Shown: piece by piece, positions 41,949 through 54,996 of the stretch
Layout: each line of letters starts with the position of its first letter
Position numbering within the stretch: position 1 is the stretch's first letter
From: an uncultured Methanomicrobiaceae archaeon
GTDB taxonomy: Archaea; Halobacteriota; Methanomicrobia; Methanomicrobiales; Methanoculleaceae
Direction of reading: 5' to 3'
DNA: 64,000 bases
Assembly: GCA_963826525.1 (NCBI GenBank)
Contig: CAWGXH010000005.1
Coordinates: 256,001 to 320,000, forward strand
Made by a program: the position numbers and the translations under genes
The notes under the pieces: model-generated
Seen by the model: the letters and a program-made list of their open reading frames with translations, nothing else
Databases searched by the model: none
Told to the model about the DNA's origin: nothing

Positions 41949-42365
41949 TCACTCCAGGCTTCCCATGTCGACGCCCACCAGCCCGACGACGGTGCCGTTT
42001 GAGTCCTTTATCGGAGCATATCCGGAGATGGCGGTATACGTGACGTTACCCCACTGTGCGGTGTAGAACGCGGGTTCCGCGGAGGGCTCCACAAATCCGG
42101 CGAGAAACGCGGTGTCCAGAGCCGTTGGATAGCAGACATAGCCGATCGGCGCTCCGTCATTGATACTGTAGTCGGCATCGACGATGTACTCGGTGGCATT
42201 CCCCACCTTCCGCATCGTATAGATATAGAGGATATCGGAGTTGGACGACCGGATGGCATCGAGCTGGTCACGGATATCGCGATGAACTCTTGCGTATCCT
42301 CATCCCCCGGCTTGAGCGCCGCCAGGGCGTCAACGGCGATCTGGTCTGCGATCTCCACTGCAAGG
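41949..42365 (-). pseudogene. Isolated Cache/PDC sensor-domain copy, paralogous to ~43200-43580 (frameshift ~42275)
   Basis: ALKPGDEDTQEF, YIYTMRKVG..VDADY, QWG..SGYAPIKDSNGTVVGLVGVDM; no start codon or TM segment found. Confidence 0.65.
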
Positions 42366-42678: not shown

Positions 42679-42909
42679 TCATCCCATGCGGGTAATCCTT
42701 GATGCGAGTTCTTCGGCTTTCTTCTTCTCGATGATCAGTGCCGCCGATGTGCTGACCCATGTGGCCAGTTCGGGGATGTGCGACTTCTGCAGATCGGTGA
42801 ATGCAAGACCGTTTAAGTGGGACTTTGTCTGCCGTTCAAGAAATCGCTCGGCTGCCGGGCCGAGATACTGAAGAGATACTTTCAGTACCTCGTCTGAGAG
42901 CTGGCTCAT
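42679..42909 (-). CDS. 76-aa conserved hypothetical protein (in frame with upstream HAMP gene in this assembly)
   Basis: AGGAGG RBS before ATG at 42909; LQYLGPAAERFLERQTKSHL. Confidence 0.7.
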   Translation of the reverse strand: MSQLSDEVLKVSLQYLGPAAERFLERQTKSHLNGLAFTDLQKSHIPELATWVSTSAALIIEKKKAEELASRITRMG

Positions 42910-42919
42910 CCAAACCCTC

Positions 42920-43740
42920 CTACTTTGTCCCGTACTCAGGTCCATCATGATCTTGAGGCTCGCGACCATTCGGCCGAAGGACTCCGCGAGTTCTCCGATC
43001 TCGTCTTTCCGCTCGACGTCGACGGAGACGTCGGTGCTGCCCATGCTGATCGCATTTGCCGTTCCGTTCAGTTTCTTGATGTCGCGGATGATCGTCCGCG
43101 AGAAGAGAGCGATGAACCCGCCGGCAACGAGAATGGCGATACCGATTACTACGAAGATGGTGTTCCCGATGAAGTCCTGCCGTGCGATCACCCGGGAGCT
43201 GTCCATGTCGACACCCACGAGCCCGACGACGGCGCCGGCCGAGTCCTTCACGGGAGCATACCCTGATAGGACGGTGCCCCACTGGTCGGTGGTGAACTCG
43301 CTGTCTGCAGAGGATTCCACAAATCCGGCGAGCAACTCGGGAACTGTCTCGTCGTAGAGATCGCCGATTGCGGCTCCGTCATCGATACCGTAATCGGCAT
43401 CCACGACGAACTCGACGGTGTCCCCGACGTTCCGCATCGTGTAGAGGTAGAGGATCTCGGGGCTCGAGGACCGGATGGTATCGAGCTGGTCACGGATCGC
43501 GACGAACTCTTGCGTATCCTCGTCCCCCGGCCGGAGCGCCGCCATGGCGTCACCGTCGATCTGGGTTGCGATGACCGCTGCCAGCGCTTTCAGCTCGTCC
43601 TGCGTGGTCTCCTTTAATGCTGATTTCGTCTCTCCATAGGTAAATACAAACGTAAGCCCTGATATAACGAGAATCAGGACGATGAAACTGACCGTCAGTT
43701 TGGTCTGAATGCTCTGTTGCCACGGTGTCAAAACACACAC
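42920..43740 (-). CDS. TM-Cache-TM-HAMP membrane protein without output domain
   Basis: TM1, extracellular DQWG..SGYAPVKD, TM2, HAMP (ANAISMG..RKDEIGELAESFGRM). Confidence 0.85.
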
Positions 43741-43891: not shown

Positions 43892-44585
43892 TCACTTCTC
43901 GACGATGTACCGGACGAGGCTTTCGGGCCTGATTCCGACGGCGTTCAGGACAAGGACCAGAAGATAGAGGACGCTCAACCGGTATTTCCCGACCGCGGCA
44001 TACCGCCGGTGCGAGGCTCTGATCGTCCGGTCAATCCTGATAAGTCTCCCATACTGCCGTGCCGCCCGGGAGAAGACGAAGTCCTCAAGATAGGGAAGCT
44101 GCTCATACCCGCCGATCCGGAAGAAAGCCTCTCTCTCGATGAAGATGCCGAAGTCTCCGAAGTATGTCTCTGTCCTCTCTGCGAGGATGTTGCCGACGGC
44201 ACTTGTCAGACGAAGCAGGGGATCCTGGGTGTCGAAGGAGTGCAAAAAACCACCGCCGATCACGGTATCTTCCGCACACACCTGCTCGATAACCCGCAGG
44301 GAATCGTGCGGGATCCGGCAATCTGCATGTAGAAAGAGCAGAATAGCACCTGCGGCATGTGCTGCCCCGGCATTCATCTGGAGCCCCCGCCCCTTCGGTG
44401 ATGTCAGCAGGAGAAACCTGTGGCGAAGCGACGAGGCGACAGCAGCAATCTCCCGGAGCGTCCCGTCCCGGCTGCCGCCGTCGACGACGATAATCTCGAG
44501 ATCCCCGGCAAGACCGTCGACGTGCGAGAGGTACTCTAGAATAGTTCCCTCTTCGTTCAGGACCCGGTGTGATGATAGATATCAT
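43892..44585 (-). CDS. GT2 glycosyltransferase, TIGR04283-like (frameshifts near 5' end)
   Basis: ISIITPVLNEE, VDGGSRD, QMNAGA, FLHAD, YFGDFGIF, GGY..LED, SHRRY. Confidence 0.82.
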
Positions 44586-44667
44586 AGTCCCCGCATGACT
44601 GCAGTCACCGTCATCAACATATATGATAATGTCATGGTAGGGGGTGTGGCTTCAGGGGCTCGTCGGC

Positions 44668-45792
44668 ATGAGTAATAACCGACAGACGACAGAGATCGAA
44701 GACAGCATAGTTTCCTGTGGGTGTCTCCACCTCGATGCCGGAGAGGTAATCCGCTATTTTGAGGAAGAGCGGGTCTACTCTATCCAGATAGAATCGAATC
44801 TCTCCTGTCCTCAGGGTTGCCGTTATTGCTACGCATCGGCAGACGGTGCGCACGCATGGGAACTTTCGGCCGAGGATATCTCCGCCGTGCTCTATGCAGG
44901 AGCAACGATGGACGTGAAGGCAATCGAATGGCTCGGCGGCGACCCGCTGTGCCGGCCGGACTGGTACGAGCTGATGGTTCACGCCGCGGATCTCGGATTT
45001 GTCAATAACATATGGACGAGCGGGATACCGCTTGCGGACCCTGCCGTTGCAAGCCGGGCAGTCGAGGTGACGGAAGGCGGGTTCATCTCCGTGCATCTCG
45101 ACAGCCTGAACCCCGGGATCTACGGTCTGCTGCATACCGGAGACGCGGACGCGAAGATCCGGGCGATATGCCGCGGTATAGAGGCCGTCCTCTCCCTCGG
45201 AAAGCCTGCCGGCGAACTTGCAAACTGCATCACCTTCACGCGCCCCCTGGCCGGCGACGACGTGAAAGAGACGATGCGGCACTTCTCTGAGGACCTCGGG
45301 ATGAAGATCTGCCTGACCCAGATCTGCAGCGTCGGCCTTGCGGAGGTTCATCAGGAGTGGATACCGACCCCGGGGGAGATCCGCGACGCCTGCAGAGAGC
45401 GGGATAGGATCTGTTTCCCCGATTCGTCATGGTCGCTTGGTACGATGGACGTGAACAAATTCTACTGCGGCGGAACTGTCTGTGTAACGGTGGACGGCGA
45501 TGTCACGCCCTGTTCGGTGATCAGAAAGGGGTATGGCAACATCAGGGAGAGGTCGCTTCGTAAGATCGTGGAAGAGCACCGGGACGATCTGCTCTTCTCC
45601 CGGATGAAGCAGCCGGGTGCGAACCCTTCCTCCTGCACCTGGTGCGAGCAGAGTGCCATCTGCTGGGGATGCCGGGCTCTGGCATACTACGCGACAGGGG
45701 ATCTCTGCGGAGAAGACCCGAAGTGCTGGCGTGCAGCCTTCGGAGGTGAGAAGCAGGGGGTGATCTCGTGGGCAAAAAACGGATGCCGATGA
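44668..45792 (+). CDS. Radical SAM/SPASM domain protein
   Basis: CPQGCRYC, GGDP; C-terminal C..VTVDGDVTPC..GNI..CTWCEQSAICWGCRA..C. Confidence 0.9.
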   Translation: MSNNRQTTEIEDSIVSCGCLHLDAGEVIRYFEEERVYSIQIESNLSCPQGCRYCYASADGAHAWELSAEDISAVLYAGATMDVKAIEWLGGDPLCRPDWYELMVHAADLGFVNNIWTSGIPLADPAVASRAVEVTEGGFISVHLDSLNPGIYGLLHTGDADAKIRAICRGIEAVLSLGKPAGELANCITFTRPLAGDDVKETMRHFSEDLGMKICLTQICSVGLAEVHQEWIPTPGEIRDACRERDRICFPDSSWSLGTMDVNKFYCGGTVCVTVDGDVTPCSVIRKGYGNIRERSLRKIVEEHRDDLLFSRMKQPGANPSSCTWCEQSAICWGCRALAYYATGDLCGEDPKCWRAAFGGEKQGVISWAKNGCR

Positions 45793-46574
45793 TGGATATC
45801 AACGTCGGTGACGTGATGACCGCCTATGAAGGACCGGTCGGCCGGATCTGGGAGATGCTGATGGGAGAAGAGATCCATGTCGGCGGCGAGGAGGAGACCC
45901 GGACTCTTGCGGAGATGGCGGGAATCGGTGAAGAGAGTCGCGTTCTCGACGTCCTTGCCGGTCTCGGAGGGCCGGCGAGGCACCTTTCACGAAGGTATGG
46001 TGCGACGGTGATGGGCCTTGACGTCACGCCCCGCATGGTCGCCGAAGCAGCAGAACGGACGAAGAACGAAGGGCTCGACGATCGCGTCACCTTCAGGCAG
46101 GGGAACGCCCTTGATATGCCTTTCAGATCCGGCACCTTCGATATCGTCTGGGGACAGGACTCCTGGTGCTATGTAACCGATAAAGACCGCCTGCTGAAGG
46201 AATGCAGCAGGGTAACAAAACCGGGAGGCACCATCGCCTTCACCGACTGGGTGCAGACCGGGCCGATGAGCGATGAGGAGCGGCACACCCTCACCACCTT
46301 CATGGTATTTCCGTACATGGAGACGCTCGAAGGATATACCGAACTCCTTACGCAGAACGGATTCGTGGTGACGAGGCGGGAAGATATCAGTGATGGTTTT
46401 GCCCGGCAGATGCACCGCTACCATGCATGTCTCACCGGCGAGCTCAAGCGCGAGATCGTCAATCTCTTCGAGGAAGAGACCTTCCGGGATGCGGAATGCG
46501 GACTCGCACTCTGGAAGAAAGCCGCCGAAGAAGGGAAGGTAGGCCGCGGCCGTTTTATCGGGCGGAAACCCTGA
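45789..46574 (+). CDS. Class I SAM-dependent methyltransferase (sarcosine/dimethylglycine MTase-like)
   Basis: EEIHVGG, VLDV..LGGPAR, GNALDMPF..FDIVWGQD, KPGG..FTDW; ATGA overlap. Confidence 0.85.
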   Translation: MMDINVGDVMTAYEGPVGRIWEMLMGEEIHVGGEEETRTLAEMAGIGEESRVLDVLAGLGGPARHLSRRYGATVMGLDVTPRMVAEAAERTKNEGLDDRVTFRQGNALDMPFRSGTFDIVWGQDSWCYVTDKDRLLKECSRVTKPGGTIAFTDWVQTGPMSDEERHTLTTFMVFPYMETLEGYTELLTQNGFVVTRREDISDGFARQMHRYHACLTGELKREIVNLFEEETFRDAECGLALWKKAAEEGKVGRGRFIGRKP

Positions 46575-47269
46575 TGCAGGCAGCTGCCATCATGGCCAAA
46601 GCGCCGTACGCGGGGCACGTCAAGACCCGCCTTGTACCCCCGCTCTCTCCGGCAGAAGCGGCTCTGCTCTATGAAAGTTTTCTGCTCGATACGATCGAAG
46701 AGCTCGGGCGGGTGAGCGGCATCGCCCCGTTCCTTGCCTATACTCCCCGGGCTGCAGAGCCCTACTTCTCCGGAATCGTACCGAAGGGGTATACGCTCAT
46801 CGCCCAGTCACCGGGGGATCTCGGCGACCGTCTCGCCCGCGTAGCGGAGGCACTCTTTCGTCGCGGTGCGACCGCAGTGGTACTGCTCGGCAGCGATACG
46901 CCGACGCTCCCGATAGAGCTCGTTCACCGTGCATTCCGGAGCCTTTCACACGCCGACGTCGTTCTTGGCCCATCAACCGACGGCGGCTACTATCTTATAG
47001 GAATGCAGAGGCCGACTCCCGGACTTTTTGCCGATATCCCGTGGAGTTCCGGGCGTGTTGCTGCATGCACGCGTGCCCGCGCCGGAGACCTCGGGGTGAC
47101 GGTATCCCTCCTTCCACCCTGGAGCGATATCGACACGGCGGACGACCTGGAGCGGCTCTGCCGCACGCTCGCCGGATCCCCGGAGAATATCGGTCCTGCC
47201 CGGCATACCCGATCTGCGCTTGTACGGCTCGGACTGCTGCCGTCAGAGGCGGCCGATCACGGCCGGTGA
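46574..47269 (+). CDS. TIGR04282/DUF2064 transferase (CofC-like nucleotidyl/glycosyltransferase fold)
   Basis: MAKAP..GHVKTRL, Q..GDLGDRL, GSDTP, LGPSTDGGYYLIG, IPWSS, DIDTADDL; TGATG overlap. Confidence 0.88.
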   Translation: MQAAAIMAKAPYAGHVKTRLVPPLSPAEAALLYESFLLDTIEELGRVSGIAPFLAYTPRAAEPYFSGIVPKGYTLIAQSPGDLGDRLARVAEALFRRGATAVVLLGSDTPTLPIELVHRAFRSLSHADVVLGPSTDGGYYLIGMQRPTPGLFADIPWSSGRVAACTRARAGDLGVTVSLLPPWSDIDTADDLERLCRTLAGSPENIGPARHTRSALVRLGLLPSEAADHGR

Positions 47270-47716: not shown

Positions 47717-47923
47717 TCACTCGACCTGGCCGATTCCTTTGCTGACATCAACGGCGGAGTTGTACTGCTGGTCGGGGATCGCCCGCAGGATGTTGATGAC
47801 ATCCTGATCGGCGTTGTTCTTCTTTGCGTGCTCGACAATCTCCTGCCTGCTTGCAGGATAGTCCATACCGGCAAGGAACTTCTGGATGTATGCCGGACTA
47901 ACACTTCCTCGCTGTTCGGCCAT
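47717..47923 (-). CDS. DUF2795 domain protein
   Basis: IQKFLAGMDYPASRQEIVEHAKKNNA..IPDQQYNSAVDV. Confidence 0.85.
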   Translation of the reverse strand: MAEQRGSVSPAYIQKFLAGMDYPASRQEIVEHAKKNNADQDVINILRAIPDQQYNSAVDVSKGIGQVE

Positions 47924-48185
47924 AATTGTCACCTCCGCGACGCTGGGCACCGTCCTCAGTATTTCGTATATACCTTACTACGATTCGAGGATTGAGGGGT
48001 ACCATTCTTCCGGACTGCCGGAGTATCCCGGATACTTCTCCTTTCACCAAGAACAGCCTGCCGGGGGGGAAATCCCCGCCCGGATGCCGGTAGCCTGCTC
48101 TCCTGCGCCTGGTGAAGGCTCCCCCGGTATCCATGGCGTGCGTTGCCGTTGTCAGGAAAAACTACCTGTCAATGGACAGTCCCGA

Positions 48186-48812
48186 CTATGAGGATTTTTT
48201 TCCGCTCGCCGATGCTTCTCCACCCTTCTTCGCGACACGCTTGCGGGTCTCCTCGTCGGCAGCCTGAAGGCCGCGAACCTCGTGCGGGGCCGTGCCGCCG
48301 GCACGGGCGACACGTTCCCGGGTCTCTTCGTCGGCAGCCTGAAGGCCGCGAACCTCGTGCGGGGCCGTGCCGCCGGCACGGGCGACACGTTCCCGGGTCT
48401 CCTCTTCGGCGGCCTGAAGGCCGCGGACTTCGTGCGGGGCCGCACCGCCGGCACGGGCGACACGTTCCCGGGTCTCTTCGTCGGCAGTCTGAAGGCCGCG
48501 AACCTCGTGCGGGGCCGTGCCGCCGGCACGGGCGACACGTTCCCGGGTCTCCTTATCGGCAGCGGCAAGCCCGATTTTTTCACCGGACGAAGCTGATGTC
48601 GATGCAACGTCATGTCCAGCGAGCGCTTTGCTGATATCAATCGGTGAGTGATACGTCGAATCAGGCAGGCTCTTCAGAGTGTCGATGATATCCTTATTGG
48701 CATCATTCTTCTTTGCCTGATTAACGAGGTCCTTCCTGCCGGCCGGATAATCGATGCCTTTCAGATACTTTTCGATTACCACCGGATTTGCCTTTATCTC
48801 CGATTTTGGCAT
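48186..48812 (-). CDS. DUF2795 domain fused to KGG/Con-10-like stress repeats
   Basis: KYLKGIDYPAGRKDL..LPDSTYHSPIDI followed by 25-aa repeats ending RVAKKGGEAS. Confidence 0.85.
   Translation of the reverse strand: MPKSEIKANPVVIEKYLKGIDYPAGRKDLVNQAKKNDANKDIIDTLKSLPDSTYHSPIDISKALAGHDVASTSASSGEKIGLAAADKETRERVARAGGTAPHEVRGLQTADEETRERVARAGGAAPHEVRGLQAAEEETRERVARAGGTAPHEVRGLQAADEETRERVARAGGTAPHEVRGLQAADEETRKRVAKKGGEASASGKKSS
48232..48565. repeat. 75-bp coding tandem repeat, ~4.4 copies
   Basis: GGGTCT recurs at 48245, 48320, 48395, 48470, 48545; unit encodes DEETRERVARAGGTAPHEVRGLQAA. Confidence 0.95.
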
Positions 48813-49218: not shown

Positions 49219-49978
49219 TCACGCGAATGGTGTGAGATCGCGCAGCAGCCTTCGGATCTGTCCGAAGTGCAGTTCCGGCCTTGCTAGAATACAGAGATAG
49301 TCCTCACCAAACGGGGTGATGAGCAGGTTTCCCTCACGGTAGAAACTGGTCATCTGTACAAAAGAGCCCAGATTGGTGATCGAGGTGAAGCAGGACGCCC
49401 AGCGGATCATATCCTCCGCCGTGGCAACGAGGTAGTCGAAATCGGCATCACCGGCCGAACTGATGACGAGCCCTTCTCTGAAGCGGGCGACTGCTAGTAT
49501 CCCGGGCTCGGCCAGCAGGCAGGCGGGATCGGAGCCCGGGTGTTCATCGCGGGGCTCTGCAGCGTCACGCTCCGTAAGTGATGGTGGCGAGGCTTTCCGG
49601 ACGGGAGTCTCCTCCGTATGCAGGCATTCCGGAACTGCAGGTGTCGGAGGCTCGTCGTCGCCGTATGCAAGAGCAAAACCCTCGCCTGAGCAGGCGGCAT
49701 ACGCTGCCAGAAACTCGTCGTGCGAGTAGCGTCGCATATCAAAGTCAAGGAGAGACTGCTGTGCGAAGTGACTTCTGAGCGGCAGGTCCCTTTAGCATAT
49801 TGGCCGCATACCGGAAGTAGTATGCAAGCGGCGTCCCCTTCCGCACCAGAATGAAGCCTTTTCCGTCCTGAACCGTGATCGCTACGATTCCGACGAACCT
49901 GGCCGTATGCGAATAGATCCACTCAAGCGGTGCCTGCATCTCTCCGATGCTCGTTCCCTGAGGCAGTCTGTCGATCAT
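49219..49978 (-). CDS. DUF2226-like N-terminal domain plus Roadblock/LC7 C-terminal domain (frameshift ~49770)
   Basis: RLPQG..FVG..GFILVRKG..L.G..A; EPGILAV..EGLVISS..GNLLITPFGEDYLCILA..GQIR. Confidence 0.7.
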
Positions 49979-50467: not shown

Positions 50468-50899
50468 ATGTGATTATAGTCATAGTGTACTATTAATAAT
50501 TAACCATTTTTTCCAGTGCCTATTATTGAGCTATACCAAAAAATATCTATTCTTATTAGCTAAAATTACTAATTACTGAGCTGAAAACAGCAATAGAAAG
50601 ATACGTCTGTGGTGTAAACTAAGTTGCCTTGCCTGCGCATGACATTACATTACCAAATGCTGATAAACCAGATGCTTTTCACATGCTCCGGGAGATATTA
50701 TCTCCCCCGTCTTCAACGGTGCCCTGCCGGGGGGCGCATAATCTCTGCAGAAGTAGATGGAATGAAGCAGCGAGGGTGGAAGCGTGTGAACACTTTCCGC
50801 TGAAGGCCCAAAACCAAAGGGGATATCCGGATAATGAAGGGAATTCAGGGCAGAATAGATGGTCAACCATATAAGCCAGTGATGTTAAACAATAGGAAC

Positions 50900-52213
50900 G
50901 TGAAATCGGCGATACTCGGTGGCGGGCTGACGGGGATCACCCTTGCCCGGCTCTTGCAGGAAAAAGGAGAAGATGTCGTTGTCCTGGAGCGCGAATCACA
51001 AATCGGCGGCCTCTGCCGGTCGGTCACCAGTGCCGGTTTCACCTTCGATATCGGAGGCTCGCATATCATTTTTTCGCGGGATTCCGAAGTACTTGCGTTC
51101 ATGCGTGAGGTGCTCGGTGAGAATAAAGACCAGCGGGCACGCAATACGAAGATCCTCTATAAAGACCGATACGTAAAATACCCCTTCGAGAACGGCCTTG
51201 CCGCCCTGCCGAAGGACGACCTCTTCTTCTGCATCAACGAGTTTGTCAGGACCCTCATCGCCGTCGAGAAAGGGGAGGTACCACCCCCGACGAACTTTGC
51301 CGGGTGGATCACCGCGACGTTCGGGAGAGGGATAGCCGAATGCTACATGCTCCCCTACAACGAGAAGATCTGGAACTACCCCGCAGAACGGATGTCGCAC
51401 CACTGGGTCGACGGCCGTATTCCCCGCCCCCCCGTAGAAGATATCATCAAGTCCGCCATCGGCATCGAGACCGAAGGCTACACCCACCAGGCCGTCTTCA
51501 CCTACCCGGTGGCAGGAGGGATCGAGGCTCTTATCCGCGCAATTGCCGCCCCCGTCACCCCGTCCGTCATAACCGGATTCTCCGTCGCCTCAATCCGCGA
51601 GCGAGACGGTACTTTCATCATCAGCGACGGAGATCGGGAGATCGAGGCCGACCGGATCATCTCGACGATCCCGCTCCAGGCGCTCCTTCCAGCCCTCGAG
51701 GATGTTCCGCCGGAGGTTCTCGAGGCCTGCGACGCCCTCCGCTACAACTCCCTCTGCTCGGTCTTCATCGGCCTTCGGACTTCCGTTCCCGATCTCTCCT
51801 GGGTCTATGTCCCCGAGGAGCGTGTCGGGCTCTTCAACCGGATCTCCTTCCCCTCGAATTACAGCACCGCTGTCGCTCCCGAAGGGCACGGCTCCATCCT
51901 CGCCGAGATTACCTACAACGAAGGCGATGCGATCTCCCGGATGACCGATACGGAGGCGATCGATCATACCGTCTCCTCACTCTGCGAGGCGGGGATCATC
52001 CGCGATGCCGGGGACGTCGTCTACACCGGCGTCGAGCGCCAGAAATTCGCCTACGTCGTCTATGATCTCGACTACCAAAAGAATATCACTCTAGTACGGG
52101 AATACTGCCGTGCCCGGAATATCGCTCTCGTCGGGCGTTTCTCCGAGTTTGAGTATCTGAACATGGACGGCTGCATCAGGAGCGCAATCACCTTTGCGAG
52201 GGCTGATCGATGA
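50900..52213 (+). CDS. FAD-dependent oxidoreductase, UDP-galactopyranose mutase-like
   Basis: GTG start; GGGLTG, GGLCRS..GFTFDIGGSHIIFS, PYNEKIW, WVDGRIP, FTYP..GG, YVVY, GRFSEFEYLNMD. Confidence 0.75.
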   Translation: MKSAILGGGLTGITLARLLQEKGEDVVVLERESQIGGLCRSVTSAGFTFDIGGSHIIFSRDSEVLAFMREVLGENKDQRARNTKILYKDRYVKYPFENGLAALPKDDLFFCINEFVRTLIAVEKGEVPPPTNFAGWITATFGRGIAECYMLPYNEKIWNYPAERMSHHWVDGRIPRPPVEDIIKSAIGIETEGYTHQAVFTYPVAGGIEALIRAIAAPVTPSVITGFSVASIRERDGTFIISDGDREIEADRIISTIPLQALLPALEDVPPEVLEACDALRYNSLCSVFIGLRTSVPDLSWVYVPEERVGLFNRISFPSNYSTAVAPEGHGSILAEITYNEGDAISRMTDTEAIDHTVSSLCEAGIIRDAGDVVYTGVERQKFAYVVYDLDYQKNITLVREYCRARNIALVGRFSEFEYLNMDGCIRSAITFARADR

Positions 52214-53187
52214 GAGTCAACATCTTCGTTGAAGATTTCCGTTTTCTCAAGTATATCGGGTGTGCGACGGCCGCAAGGACGCTCTATAACTACCTCTCCC
52301 GGTTGCCCGACCTCGAGGTGGCGCGAAACTCCTACAGAGACCGTTTCGACCTGACCCACTACCATACCTTCGGACCGTGGGCGATGTACCACCTCAAGTT
52401 CACCGACGGGGTAAAAGTCCTCACCGCTCACTCGACGCCGCGGCTGAACGACGGGAACGTCGCCTTTTCCAAGCGGATTAACAGGGTATATCCGAAGATC
52501 TACCGGCAGTTCGATCACATCATCACCATCTCCGAACCCTGCCACCGCGAGACCGACCAGATGGTGCCCGAGGTCGAAAAGACACTTATTCCGAACGGCA
52601 TCGACCGGGAGTACTTCACCCCGGACGCAAAGAAGCGCCGGCTCTTCCGGGAGCAGTACGATATCGAGCCCGGCCAGAAAGTGGTGCTCTCCGTCGGGCA
52701 GCAGACCCCGCGGAAGGGTATATACGATTTCCTCAAACTCGCTGCAAAGCACCCGGAGATGACTTGGGTCTGGGTGGGCGGGTTCCCCTACGGCACACTC
52801 TCAAAGGACTATACCCGGATCCAGATGGCAAAAAGCCGCTGCCACGACAACGTCATCTTCACGGGCCTGGTCGACGATATCTCGGCTCCGTACTGCGGGG
52901 CGGACGTCTTCTTCATGCCCTCGTATGCCGAGACCTTCGGTCTTGTCATTGTCGAGGCGCTCGCAACCGGCCTTCCGGTGATCGCACGGGACATCTATGA
53001 GTTCCGCGAGATCTTCGGCGACTCGGTGCTCTTCTTCCGGGATGCCGGAGAAGTGCAGGAGATGCTCGGAAACGACACGCTGCTCAAGACCTGCAAGCGG
53101 CAGGCCCGGGAGTCGACAGAGAAATATGACATCAAGCTTATTGCCGGAATGCATCAACAGTTGTACAAAGACCTGGTGGAGCCATGA
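52210..53187 (+). CDS. GT4 glycosyltransferase, CpoA/DGS glycolipid synthase-like
   Basis: VGQQTPRKGIYDF..WVGGFPYG, PSYAETFGLVIVEA, RDI..F. Confidence 0.85.
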   Translation: MRVNIFVEDFRFLKYIGCATAARTLYNYLSRLPDLEVARNSYRDRFDLTHYHTFGPWAMYHLKFTDGVKVLTAHSTPRLNDGNVAFSKRINRVYPKIYRQFDHIITISEPCHRETDQMVPEVEKTLIPNGIDREYFTPDAKKRRLFREQYDIEPGQKVVLSVGQQTPRKGIYDFLKLAAKHPEMTWVWVGGFPYGTLSKDYTRIQMAKSRCHDNVIFTGLVDDISAPYCGADVFFMPSYAETFGLVIVEALATGLPVIARDIYEFREIFGDSVLFFRDAGEVQEMLGNDTLLKTCKRQARESTEKYDIKLIAGMHQQLYKDLVEP

Positions 53188-53882
53188 TATCGATCATCAT
53201 TCCGACCTACAACGAAGAAGAGAATATCACCCGGTGCTTATTGTCGCTCGCCGACCAGACGGTGCCGAGGAGTACCTACGAGATCATCGTTGTGGACGGA
53301 AACTCGAAAGACCGGACGCGTGAACTCGCCGAACCGCTCGCCGACAGTGTCTTTATCCAGAAGAGCAAGAAGGTCGGGGGCGCCAGAAACGACGGCGTGA
53401 TGGAATCACGGGGATCGATCGCCGCGACGACGGATGCAGACTGTATTCTGCCCCGAAACTGGGTGGAGACGATCGCACGCGACTTCGACCGCCGCGATAT
53501 CGTCCAGCTCTACGGGACAGTCTATCCCCTCGAGGGCGGGATCAAGAACAATCTCTCGCTCGTCGGTGCCAACACCTTCTCCCGGTTCGGCTACTATACC
53601 CGCACCATCTACTTCACGCTCGGGTGCAACACTGCGTTCGACCGTGACGCCTTCATCGAAGCCGGGATGTACCGGTGCATCGACGCCGGAGACGACCTCG
53701 AGATCGCGCAGCGGATGCGCAAGCTCGGCAGGGTGATGCTCGACCCGTCCCTTCGTGTCGGTTTCTCCATGCGCCGCTACCAGCAGTTCGGGACGATCAA
53801 GTCGGTCTACGAGTGGCTGGCAATCGTGGCGAGCGGCGGCGATTCTGCCAAAGCCAGCTACTCAAAACGGATCTATAAGTGA
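53184..53882 (+). CDS. GT2 glycosyltransferase
   Basis: SIIIPTYNEE, VDGNSKD, ARNDG, TDAD, GCN, GDD, SMRRY. Confidence 0.9.
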   Translation: MISIIIPTYNEEENITRCLLSLADQTVPRSTYEIIVVDGNSKDRTRELAEPLADSVFIQKSKKVGGARNDGVMESRGSIAATTDADCILPRNWVETIARDFDRRDIVQLYGTVYPLEGGIKNNLSLVGANTFSRFGYYTRTIYFTLGCNTAFDRDAFIEAGMYRCIDAGDDLEIAQRMRKLGRVMLDPSLRVGFSMRRYQQFGTIKSVYEWLAIVASGGDSAKASYSKRIYK

Positions 53883-54824: not shown

Positions 54825-54996
54825 TGTTTTTCCCCTAAGCCAGAGTGAACTCTGCTTTTGACGTCGTCGATACAAGCATGAGATACTGGGAACACACATA
54901 TAAATATATCGCTGGGAGCCTGACGAGACCTGCGCATACGGCTATCAGGGCCGTCGGACGGAGATACTAATAGCTCATCGGGATAATACAATCCGC

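Follow-up and report, generated by a model that had tools for sequence, protein, structure and literature searches.

We describe a four-gene cassette of an uncultured Methanomicrobiaceae archaeon (assembly GCA_963826525.1) that is real, conserved, and uncharacterised, and that represents a variation on known tailoring systems built from radical S-adenosylmethionine (SAM) enzymes and glycosyltransferases. The cassette lies at 43892..47269 of a 64,000-nucleotide stretch of contig CAWGXH010000005.1, referred to here as the window. It is composed of a minus-strand gene for a family 2 glycosyltransferase (GT2), followed on the plus strand by closely packed genes for a radical SAM enzyme with a SPASM domain (rSAM), a class I SAM methyltransferase (MT), and a DUF2064 protein. 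The identities of the genes, their linkage, their modularity, and the distinctness of the set from the arsenosugar genes for ArsS and ArsM were observed directly. As to function, we favor, with a probability of about 0.4, a reading drawn from sequence comparison, in which the cassette would modify a sugar or polyol by radical chemistry and methylate it, activate it with a nucleotide, and use the GT2 to transfer it to a membrane acceptor.

Organization of the gene cassette

43892..44585, minus strand: TIGR04283-type GT2 ending in a hydrophobic helix (NCBIfam, Pfam); frame interrupted at 44563-44565
44586..44667, between the divergent genes: intergenic region of 82 bp with a conserved TATA-like element inside
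44668..45792, plus strand: 374-aa radical SAM enzyme that includes a full SPASM domain (Pfam, NCBIfam, invariant Cys set)
45789..46574, plus strand: 261-aa class I SAM methyltransferase, PMT/SDMT/RebM superfamily (NCBIfam, Pfam, PDB relatives)
46574..47269, plus strand: DUF2064/TIGR04282 protein with a CofC-like nucleotidyltransferase fold, 231 aa (TIGR04282, PF09837, CofC, 3CGX)

The positions and families of the four genes had been given in an earlier reading made from the sequence alone (the original prediction), and the listing of open reading frames (ORFs), NCBIfam, and Pfam confirmed them. The 82-bp divergent gap and the two overlaps that it reported are likewise legible in the sequence: the rSAM stop and the MT start share ATGA at 45789-45792, and the MT stop and the DUF2064 start share TGATG at 46572-46576, so that the spacing within the cassette is 82, −4, and −1 nt. 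The TATA-like element is located at approximately 44608-44637, with the core ACATATATGATAATG at 44617-44631, about 35-50 nt upstream of the rSAM start, and is presumably the promoter. The corresponding block, CCGTCAyCmAC-wTATATGATGATG-yTCATGG, was present in 11 of 12 loci (L001-L011) and was not evident in L012.

Linkage and distribution of the cassette

Conservation was assessed in a set of 41 genomes, consisting of that of the window and 40 relatives. An rSAM ortholog (E < 1e-100) was found in 13 of them, and one further genome had a fragment at a contig end. The arrangement of all four genes in the window was kept in every one of the relatives' loci that were retrieved (11/11). Since it recurs in these loci and in other phyla, the four-gene arrangement is far beyond chance. 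The flanks of the window were common to only one named locus (L019), which indicates that the cassette moves as a unit.

A scan of named genomes, which reaches only fairly close relatives, revealed 29 loci. The rSAM gene adjoined the MT gene in 27 of them, and all four genes were present in 15. The hosts were Methanoculleus species (M. sediminis, M. methanifontis, M. frigidifontis, and M. nereidis among them), other Methanomicrobiales, Bathyarchaeia, a Thermoplasmatales metagenome-assembled genome (MAG), and Heimdall- and Hodarchaeota; one further host was recorded as an "uncultured bacterium." Thus, the predicted linkage of the four genes in other genomes held in the relatives and in these named loci. 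Two outcomes had been named in advance as speaking against the original prediction, namely canonical ArsS/ArsM scores and a lack of linkage; both were looked for, and neither occurred.

The same picture emerged when 401 genomes, sampled evenly across the phylum, were examined. The rSAM ortholog was detected in 20 genomes, each with an MT and a DUF2064 gene adjoining, and in all 14 of the further phylum loci rSAM, MT, and DUF2064 stood in a row. A TIGR04282-like gene was found in 22 genomes, including all 20 with rSAM. ArsS exceeded its cut-off in two genomes, neither of which had a TIGR04282-like gene. The expectation that TIGR04282 accompanies ArsS therefore failed in the phylum: ArsS occurred in 0 of the 22 TIGR04282 genomes, and the rSAM-MT pair stood beside the gene in 20 of them.

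In metagenomes, at least 553 contigs encode relatives of the MT, and the following figures come from the best 80. Where the flanks measured 1.1 kb or more on each side (39 loci), the rSAM gene adjoined the MT gene in 35. Where they measured 3 kb or more on each side (20 loci), rSAM was present in 18, DUF2064 in 10, GT2 in 10, all three in 9, and a membrane protein without a Pfam family in 6.

The distribution of the cassette is patchy. In the 41-genome set, 8 of the 18 species in the largest related genus carried it, with the one fragment in addition, and none of the nine genomes from three other families within the order did; the counts for these families in the phylum sample were 0/6, 0/9, and 0/3. 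The rSAM-MT pair is rare but nevertheless showed 45–57% identity from methanogens to Asgard archaea, and this retained identity across archaea suggests one specific product.

Radical SAM enzyme

The rSAM protein matched PF04055 with 44.6 bits, PF13186 with 26.9 bits (cut-off 21.5), and TIGR04085 with 28.5 bits (cut-off 27). Alignments of 20 orthologs each for rSAM and MT were drawn from about 60 loci. In the rSAM alignment, the cysteines C47/C51/C54 (CX3CX2C), C187, C267/C272/C282, C323/C326/C332/C335, and C353 were invariant, and the seven-cysteine SPASM pattern was complete. The ArsS model TIGR04167 gave 19.6 bits for rSAM against a cut-off of 300, and its best score in the whole genome was 49.5 bits. 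The C-terminal domain of the ArsS type is DUF3641; it was not found in rSAM, for which Pfam gave only PF04055 and PF13186. These results bear out the original prediction that the enzyme carries a full SPASM domain and is not ArsS.

No NCBIfam equivalog was found for rSAM; the best match was TIGR04053 (78 bits, cut-off 395), followed by AhbD, NirJ2, NirJ, and PqqE. The structural model (pLDDT 87.3) retrieved SPASM and twitch enzymes of every substrate class with TM values of about 0.5–0.6, so that the fold did not discriminate the substrate, and a search of the ESM Atlas returned generic radical SAM clusters only. The cluster motif is preceded by 46 residues, which are too few for a domain of the RRE type (the recognition element of enzymes acting on peptides that are made by the ribosome and modified after translation, RiPPs), and no N-terminus of that size is present. 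The predicted rSAM-MT complex scored 0.28 (mark, 0.32). A DUF2064 domain was found in none of the best 120 of 426 rSAM relatives (proteins of 205–655 aa were searched). The window rSAM has 16 additional C-terminal residues that are absent from relatives. Selenocysteine was considered for the in-frame TGA of six orthologs and rejected; these codons are natural stops, and the window protein is simply 16 residues longer.

Methyltransferase

The MT is the most conserved of the four proteins, with 47–82% identity between the window and 19 orthologs, and its profile gave 179 matches at E ≤ 1e-30 in 1.84 billion representative proteins. None of the curated families included it: it scored 102.4 bits against NF041675 (sarcosine/dimethylglycine N-methyltransferase; cut-off 550), 95.6 bits against NF045667 (DVU_1556 family methyltransferase; cut-off 155), and 65.9 and 62.1 bits in two scans against the ArsM model NF008823/PRK11873 (cut-off 263). 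ArsM uses several conserved As(III)-binding cysteines. The sole invariant cysteine of the MT in the 20 orthologs is C127, beside the catalytic position. Thus, the MT lacks the ArsM cysteine motifs and is not ArsM, as had been proposed.

The relatives of known structure (3uj6, 5wp5, 2o57, 6uv6, and 3bus) showed full-length homology with E-values of 1e-23 to 1e-32. The MT is about equally near to phosphoethanolamine N-methyltransferases, the sarcosine/dimethylglycine methyltransferase, a glucose O-methyltransferase, 3bus, and MitM; 6uv6 is a sugar O-methyltransferase, as is 3bus, which we take to be RebM. The suggestion that the enzyme is N-methyltransferase-like was therefore unsupported, since sugar O- and N-methyltransferases of known structure scored equally.

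The MT keeps the N-terminal Y-x7-[WY]E...GG motif and an Asp matching D128 of the phosphoethanolamine methyltransferase PfPMT. Tyr128 occupies the His position of all five solved relatives aligned and corresponds to PfPMT H132, presumably the catalytic His. PfPMT Y160, Y175, R179, and Y181, which we take to be phosphate binders, align with the invariant W154, L168, M172, and F174 of the MT. Thus, neither the catalytic His nor the polar phosphate binders of the phosphoethanolamine N-methyltransferases are kept. The family motif is WGQD[AS]WCY. Among the best 150 library representatives of the wider family, W-C-Y occurred in 9 and W-C-H in 12, which makes the Cys the steadier mark of the family. 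Long proteins of the MT family were MT-MT, GATase-MT, and B12-rSAM-MT fusions, none of which contained the cassette rSAM.

A sister clade of the MT (approximately 48% identity; L132:4916-12849 and L145:3396-11790) has no rSAM adjoining. It lies among genes for a corrinoid protein, for a methyltransferase of the URO-D type, and for RACo and HGD-D/BcrAD, which is a corrinoid methyl-transfer context.

DUF2064 protein and glycosyltransferase

The DUF2064 protein belongs to TIGR04282 (195.6 bits, cut-off 134) and to PF09837 (119.9 bits). It also matched models of the guanylyltransferase CofC with 43.2 and 24.8 bits, and PDB entry 3CGX, deposited as a "putative nucleotide-diphospho-sugar transferase," with an E-value of 1.5e-29.

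The GT2 scored 183 bits against TIGR04283 (cut-off 182) in the minus frame 43892..44581, without its first 7 residues, and 56.6 bits against PF00535; its ortholog in L034 reached 189.6 bits with TIGR04283. The TIGR04283 assignment and the divergent orientation given in the original prediction stood, but the frame taken there as intact is broken. Translation from the ATG at 44585 begins "MISIITP," and the frame is lost 21–23 nt after the ATG, at a CCC run at 44563-44565 (plus strand) where the window has one extra base; the frame matching TIGR04283 has a TGA just upstream. In 11 of 11 loci of relatives, the GT2 begins M[LIV]S[IV][IV]TPVLNEE in a single frame with one base fewer.

This frameshift is likelier to be an assembly indel than the mark of a dead gene, because ORFs of a genome of the same genus map in two frames, another radical SAM gene is split, and the assembly is incomplete (87.6% complete, 16 contigs). 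The ORFs in question are two single ORFs of that genome (L066), each of which falls in two different frames of the window, at about 49772-49778 and 54958-54984; this suggests indel errors in the assembly. The split gene encodes an AhbD/NirJ-like radical SAM/SPASM protein and lies across two reading frames of the same genome as the window (L016, G000:C4:1591409-1592603). Only one public run contains part of the stretch (share 0.18, contigs), as two 151-nt pieces at 44133-44405, outside 44563-44565, and no RNA data set was listed as containing it.

A structural model was built with AlphaFold on the intact GT2 ortholog in L002 (pLDDT 88.5). Its best fold match was the archaeal membrane mannosyltransferase PcManGT (TMq 0.76), and the closest PDB sequence was ArnC (E 3.9e-5).

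Modules of the cassette and recurrent neighbouring genes

The cassette consists of two separable two-gene modules, rSAM-MT and DUF2064-GT2. In G030, GT2 and DUF2064 diverge from each other, and neither rSAM nor MT lies between the two. The rSAM-MT core is also carried by Bathyarchaeia, Asgard archaea, one Thermoplasmatales MAG, and certain bacteria; in the Bathyarchaeial loci, the order AhpC-rSAM-MT is accompanied by an uncharacterised 180-aa gene, and GT2 and DUF2064 are absent. The Asgard loci have the order DUF2064, large membrane GT2, GT87-like glycosyltransferase of the GT-C type, DoxX, and MT-rSAM, with larger membrane GT2s in place of the small GT2, and they also contain a second MT and a weak UbiA-like gene. 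GT87-like GT-C genes were found in 9 of 113 loci and not in the window cassette.

In many loci, a multi-pass membrane protein of 220–250 aa without a Pfam family is encoded between GT2 and rSAM; members that recur next to rSAM include L075:9627-10283, L064:6675-7415, and L030:8584-9747. Its residues D38, R40, H43, N44, E107, H128, H139, R148, E162, and E184 are invariant, and the Bathyarchaeial form has a ferritin-like di-iron domain fused to it. The protein is possibly a membrane enzyme. No member of the family was found in the window's genome, the assembly of which is 87.6% complete. A TauE/SafE identity was considered for this protein and rejected, as 2 of 13 members matched with E-values of about 4e-4 to 1e-3, probably by chance.

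In a high-GC, probably bacterial clade, a gene of the DinB_2 superfamily follows the MT gene, overlapping it in places (L118, L119, L122, L124, and L125), and DUF2064 stands ahead of rSAM. In L098, a DinB_2 superfamily gene is located upstream of rSAM.

Proposed function and alternative explanations

Under the favored reading, which we consider the most economical, the rSAM would tailor a small substrate (a sugar or polyol) by radical chemistry, and the MT would then methylate it. The DUF2064 protein would activate a phospho-sugar or phospho-polyol as a nucleoside diphosphate derivative, and the membrane-associated GT2 would transfer the unit to polyprenyl phosphate, a lipid alcohol, or a similar acceptor. 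Where a GT-C is present, it could pass the unit on to a surface molecule. The order of the reactions, the kind of substrate, the acceptor, and the product are all our inference. The output is probably an unusual methylated sugar-like group for a glycolipid or for a membrane or surface glycan. A role for the cassette at the membrane or in a glycan is indicated by the resemblance of the GT2 to the membrane mannosyltransferase and ArnC and by the recurrence of GT-C and membrane-protein neighbours. A small-molecule substrate is favored by the lack of an RRE-sized N-terminus on rSAM and of room for a precursor ORF in the gaps of 82, −4, and −1 nt. The presence of two sugar O-methyltransferases, beside N-methyltransferases, among the nearest solved relatives of the MT is consistent with a sugar substrate, and the matches of DUF2064 to CofC models and 3CGX point to nucleotide activation.

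Known systems provide partial parallels. In the ArnC/ArnT routes, a GT2 makes a lipid-linked modified sugar, and a GT-C transfers the sugar. The cassette resembles them in that the best PDB match of its GT2 is ArnC, its fold is closest to that of an archaeal membrane GT2, and a GT-C is present in 9/113 loci; unlike them, it shows only a weak match (E 3.9e-5), and the window cassette has no GT-C. The radical SAM enzymes HpnJ and Cds are non-SPASM enzymes, and neither was among the 25 of 36 NCBIfam matches listed. Sections 2.6 and 3 of PMC13459092 describe the HpnI/HpnK/HpnJ route to the hopanoid cyclitol ether and the calditol synthase Cds as systems in which a glycosyltransferase puts a sugar on a lipid and a radical SAM enzyme rebuilds it. 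The logic of head-group remodelling by these two enzyme types is shared with the cassette, whereas neither a DUF2064 gene nor a class I MT gene accompanies the HpnI/HpnK/HpnJ and Cds systems. No functional study of TIGR04282, TIGR04283, or DUF2064 was found in the literature searched, and the outline of a 2026 review of lipid radical SAM enzymes includes none of this kind. The cassette is thus uncharacterised, as had been supposed; neither a curated family nor a paper explains rSAM-MT.

Several observations weigh against the proposed sugar or polyol pathway. No neighbouring gene that would supply a sugar-1-phosphate, and no obvious acceptor, was found. The occurrence of rSAM-MT without DUF2064 and GT2 in Bathyarchaeia implies that the two modules need not share one pathway. 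Genes of the thiol/redox type adjoin some of the 113 loci (DinB_2 in 6, rhodanese in 3, AhpC in 5, and DoxX in 8), and one locus (L105) lies in an ars operon context; all of these neighbours hint at other chemistry. The fold neighbours of rSAM are mostly peptide maturases (SkfB, SuiB, PqqE, and anSME). The hydrophobic residues predicted to line the MT pocket would suit a free sugar no better than a lipid or other hydrophobic substrate, and perhaps less well. Finally, the GT2 frameshift could be real, as the site 44563-44565 has no read coverage.

The ars context belongs to an alternative that we regard as unlikely, namely a non-canonical organoarsenic (or sulfur or selenium) pathway in which rSAM would make a carbon-heteroatom bond, the MT would methylate the heteroatom, and DUF2064 and GT2 would process the sugar, in the manner suggested for ArsS/ArsM arsenosugars. 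Both transferases are filed by NCBIfam under "arsenosugar biosynthesis" (formerly "rSAM/selenodomain-associated transferases"). The cassette resembles the arsenosugar set (ArsS/ArsM/TIGR04282/TIGR04283) in that both transferase families exceed their cut-offs and share their locus with radical SAM and SAM methyltransferase genes; it differs in that its rSAM is a SPASM enzyme, its MT (62–66 bits against 263, with one invariant Cys beside the catalytic position and not several) is not ArsM, and ArsS and TIGR04282 never occur together in the 401 genomes. ArsS was also not found in the window's genome. At the metagenome locus L105:3505-5785, genes for ArsP, ArsR, and an ArsC of the low-molecular-weight phosphatase type lie directly upstream of rSAM-MT, but this is the only one of 113 loci with ars flanks; elsewhere, neighbours of the thiol/chalcogen type include DinB_2, rhodanese, AhpC, DoxX, and a sulfur transporter, and the first four make a thiol or chalcogen product conceivable. 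ArsM is enriched in cassette-bearing genomes, both in the phylum sample (15/20 vs. 126/381 of the others) and among the relatives (10/13 vs. 7/28 without the cassette), and the window's genome has a canonical, unlinked ArsM on another contig (G000:C4:1376716-1377543; 361.7 bits, cut-off 263). The position of the one invariant Cys of the MT, beside the catalytic site, would also agree with this alternative. However, five of the 20 cassette-bearing genomes, 96–99% complete, have no ArsM. In the one genus where both vary, ArsM was present in 8/8 genomes with the cassette and in 8/10 without it, and it is common in the phylum (141/401); the enrichment thus follows shared lineage. We know of no SPASM enzyme that acts as an adenosyl transferase. 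ArsS itself cleaves the adenosyl C-S bond of SAM radically (bioRxiv 10.1101/2024.02.01.577332), and nothing found at the cassette points to such cleavage. The arsenic, selenium, or sulfur substrate of the original prediction is therefore unsupported, given ars flanks in 1/113 loci and 5/20 genomes without ArsM, and so is the "arsenosugar" label for the cassette.

The membrane links of the MT partners and its hydrophobic pocket, as judged from aligned residues, would also suit the synthesis or modification of a membrane-lipid head group, such as that of N-methylated aminopentanetetrol (APT) phospholipids, with the MT as an N-trimethylating enzyme. Among the full-length relatives of the MT are N-methyltransferases of phosphoethanolamine, sarcosine, and dimethylglycine, enzymes that form quaternary amines, and HpnI/HpnJ and Cds set a precedent for head-group remodelling by a glycosyltransferase and a radical SAM enzyme. 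N-methylated APT lipids are typical of Methanomicrobiales: forms with one to three N-methyl groups are dominant in Methanospirillum and also present in Methanocalculus (PMC11346949, PMC6423904). Nevertheless, the cassette is patchy within the order (8/18 species of one genus and 0/9 genomes in three other families); trimethyl-APT came from diverse methanogens, Methanomicrobiales among them (PMC6423904), APT was dominant in all four Methanospirillum strains analysed (PMC11346949), and no Methanospirillum locus came from the named-genome scan, which reaches only fairly close relatives. Bathyarchaeia, Asgard archaea, and bacteria have the rSAM-MT pair too, and to our knowledge, APT has not been reported from any of these. 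The APT idea accordingly ranks low, and we hold it to be somewhat less probable than the heteroatom pathway. Quite improbable, in our view, is the modification of a protein or peptide by the SPASM enzyme in a RiPP-like or anSME-like manner, followed by methylation and glycosylation as in mycofactocin synthesis. The nearest folds of the rSAM model, SkfB, SuiB, PqqE, anSME, and CteB, would agree with it, and the triad of SPASM rSAM, MftF-like GT2, and class I MT mirrors the three enzyme classes MftC, MftF, and MftM; TIGR04283 is even named "glyco_like_mftF." The mycofactocin models scored far under their cut-offs: TIGR03962 (MftC) aligned over rSAM residues 42-356 with 49.9 bits against 265, and TIGR03965 (MftF) reached 33.4 bits against 280. 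The rSAM has no N-terminus of RRE length, the cassette is packed too tightly to hold a precursor gene, and its flanks are not conserved across genera. Equivalents of MftA and MftB were not seen, and there is no room for extra ORFs in the cassette, although no genome-wide search for the two was made. We know of no role for DUF2064 in RiPP pathways.

Genes flanking the cassette

The GT2 gene is adjoined at 42679-43740 (minus strand) by a gene for a HAMP-domain protein, of 353 aa here and 274 aa in a genome of the same genus; a paralogous match to it lies at 41958-42275. On the other side, 47720-47950 and 48186-48812 (minus strand) encode a 77-aa ORF and a 208-aa DUF2795 protein; the counterpart of the 77-aa ORF in L019 resembles the N-terminus of the 208-aa protein. 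Further downstream, an operon-like trio at 50834-53882, syntenic in L066 and L019, encodes an FAD oxidoreductase similar to PRK07208 and UDP-galactopyranose mutase, a family 4 glycosyltransferase resembling diacylglycerol glucosyltransferases, and a paralog of the cassette GT2 (TIGR04283 86.7 bits, under the cut-off). The trio is possibly a glycolipid (galactofuranose?) locus.

Implications

The pipeline names that mark TIGR04282 and TIGR04283 genes as "arsenosugar" genes would mislead here, as their partner in this phylum is an uncurated rSAM-MT pair and never ArsS. In a broader and more doubtful form of the proposed sugar or polyol pathway, anaerobic archaea of several phyla (Halobacteriota, Bathyarchaeia, Asgard archaea, and a Thermoplasmatales MAG) and some bacteria might share an undescribed route, built on rSAM and the W-C-Y MT with DUF2064, GT2, GT-C, and the membrane protein as optional partners, to a radical-remodelled, methylated sugar or polyol, possibly with sulfur, selenium, or arsenic, that would be nucleotide-activated and placed on a lipid carrier; it is possible that the product is an organoarsenic, sulfur, or selenium compound. 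Were this broader form true, it would add a new head group to the envelope or its lipids, one that might serve as a biomarker. Cassette-bearing and cassette-free close species of Methanoculleus are both in culture, which makes the product open to direct comparison.

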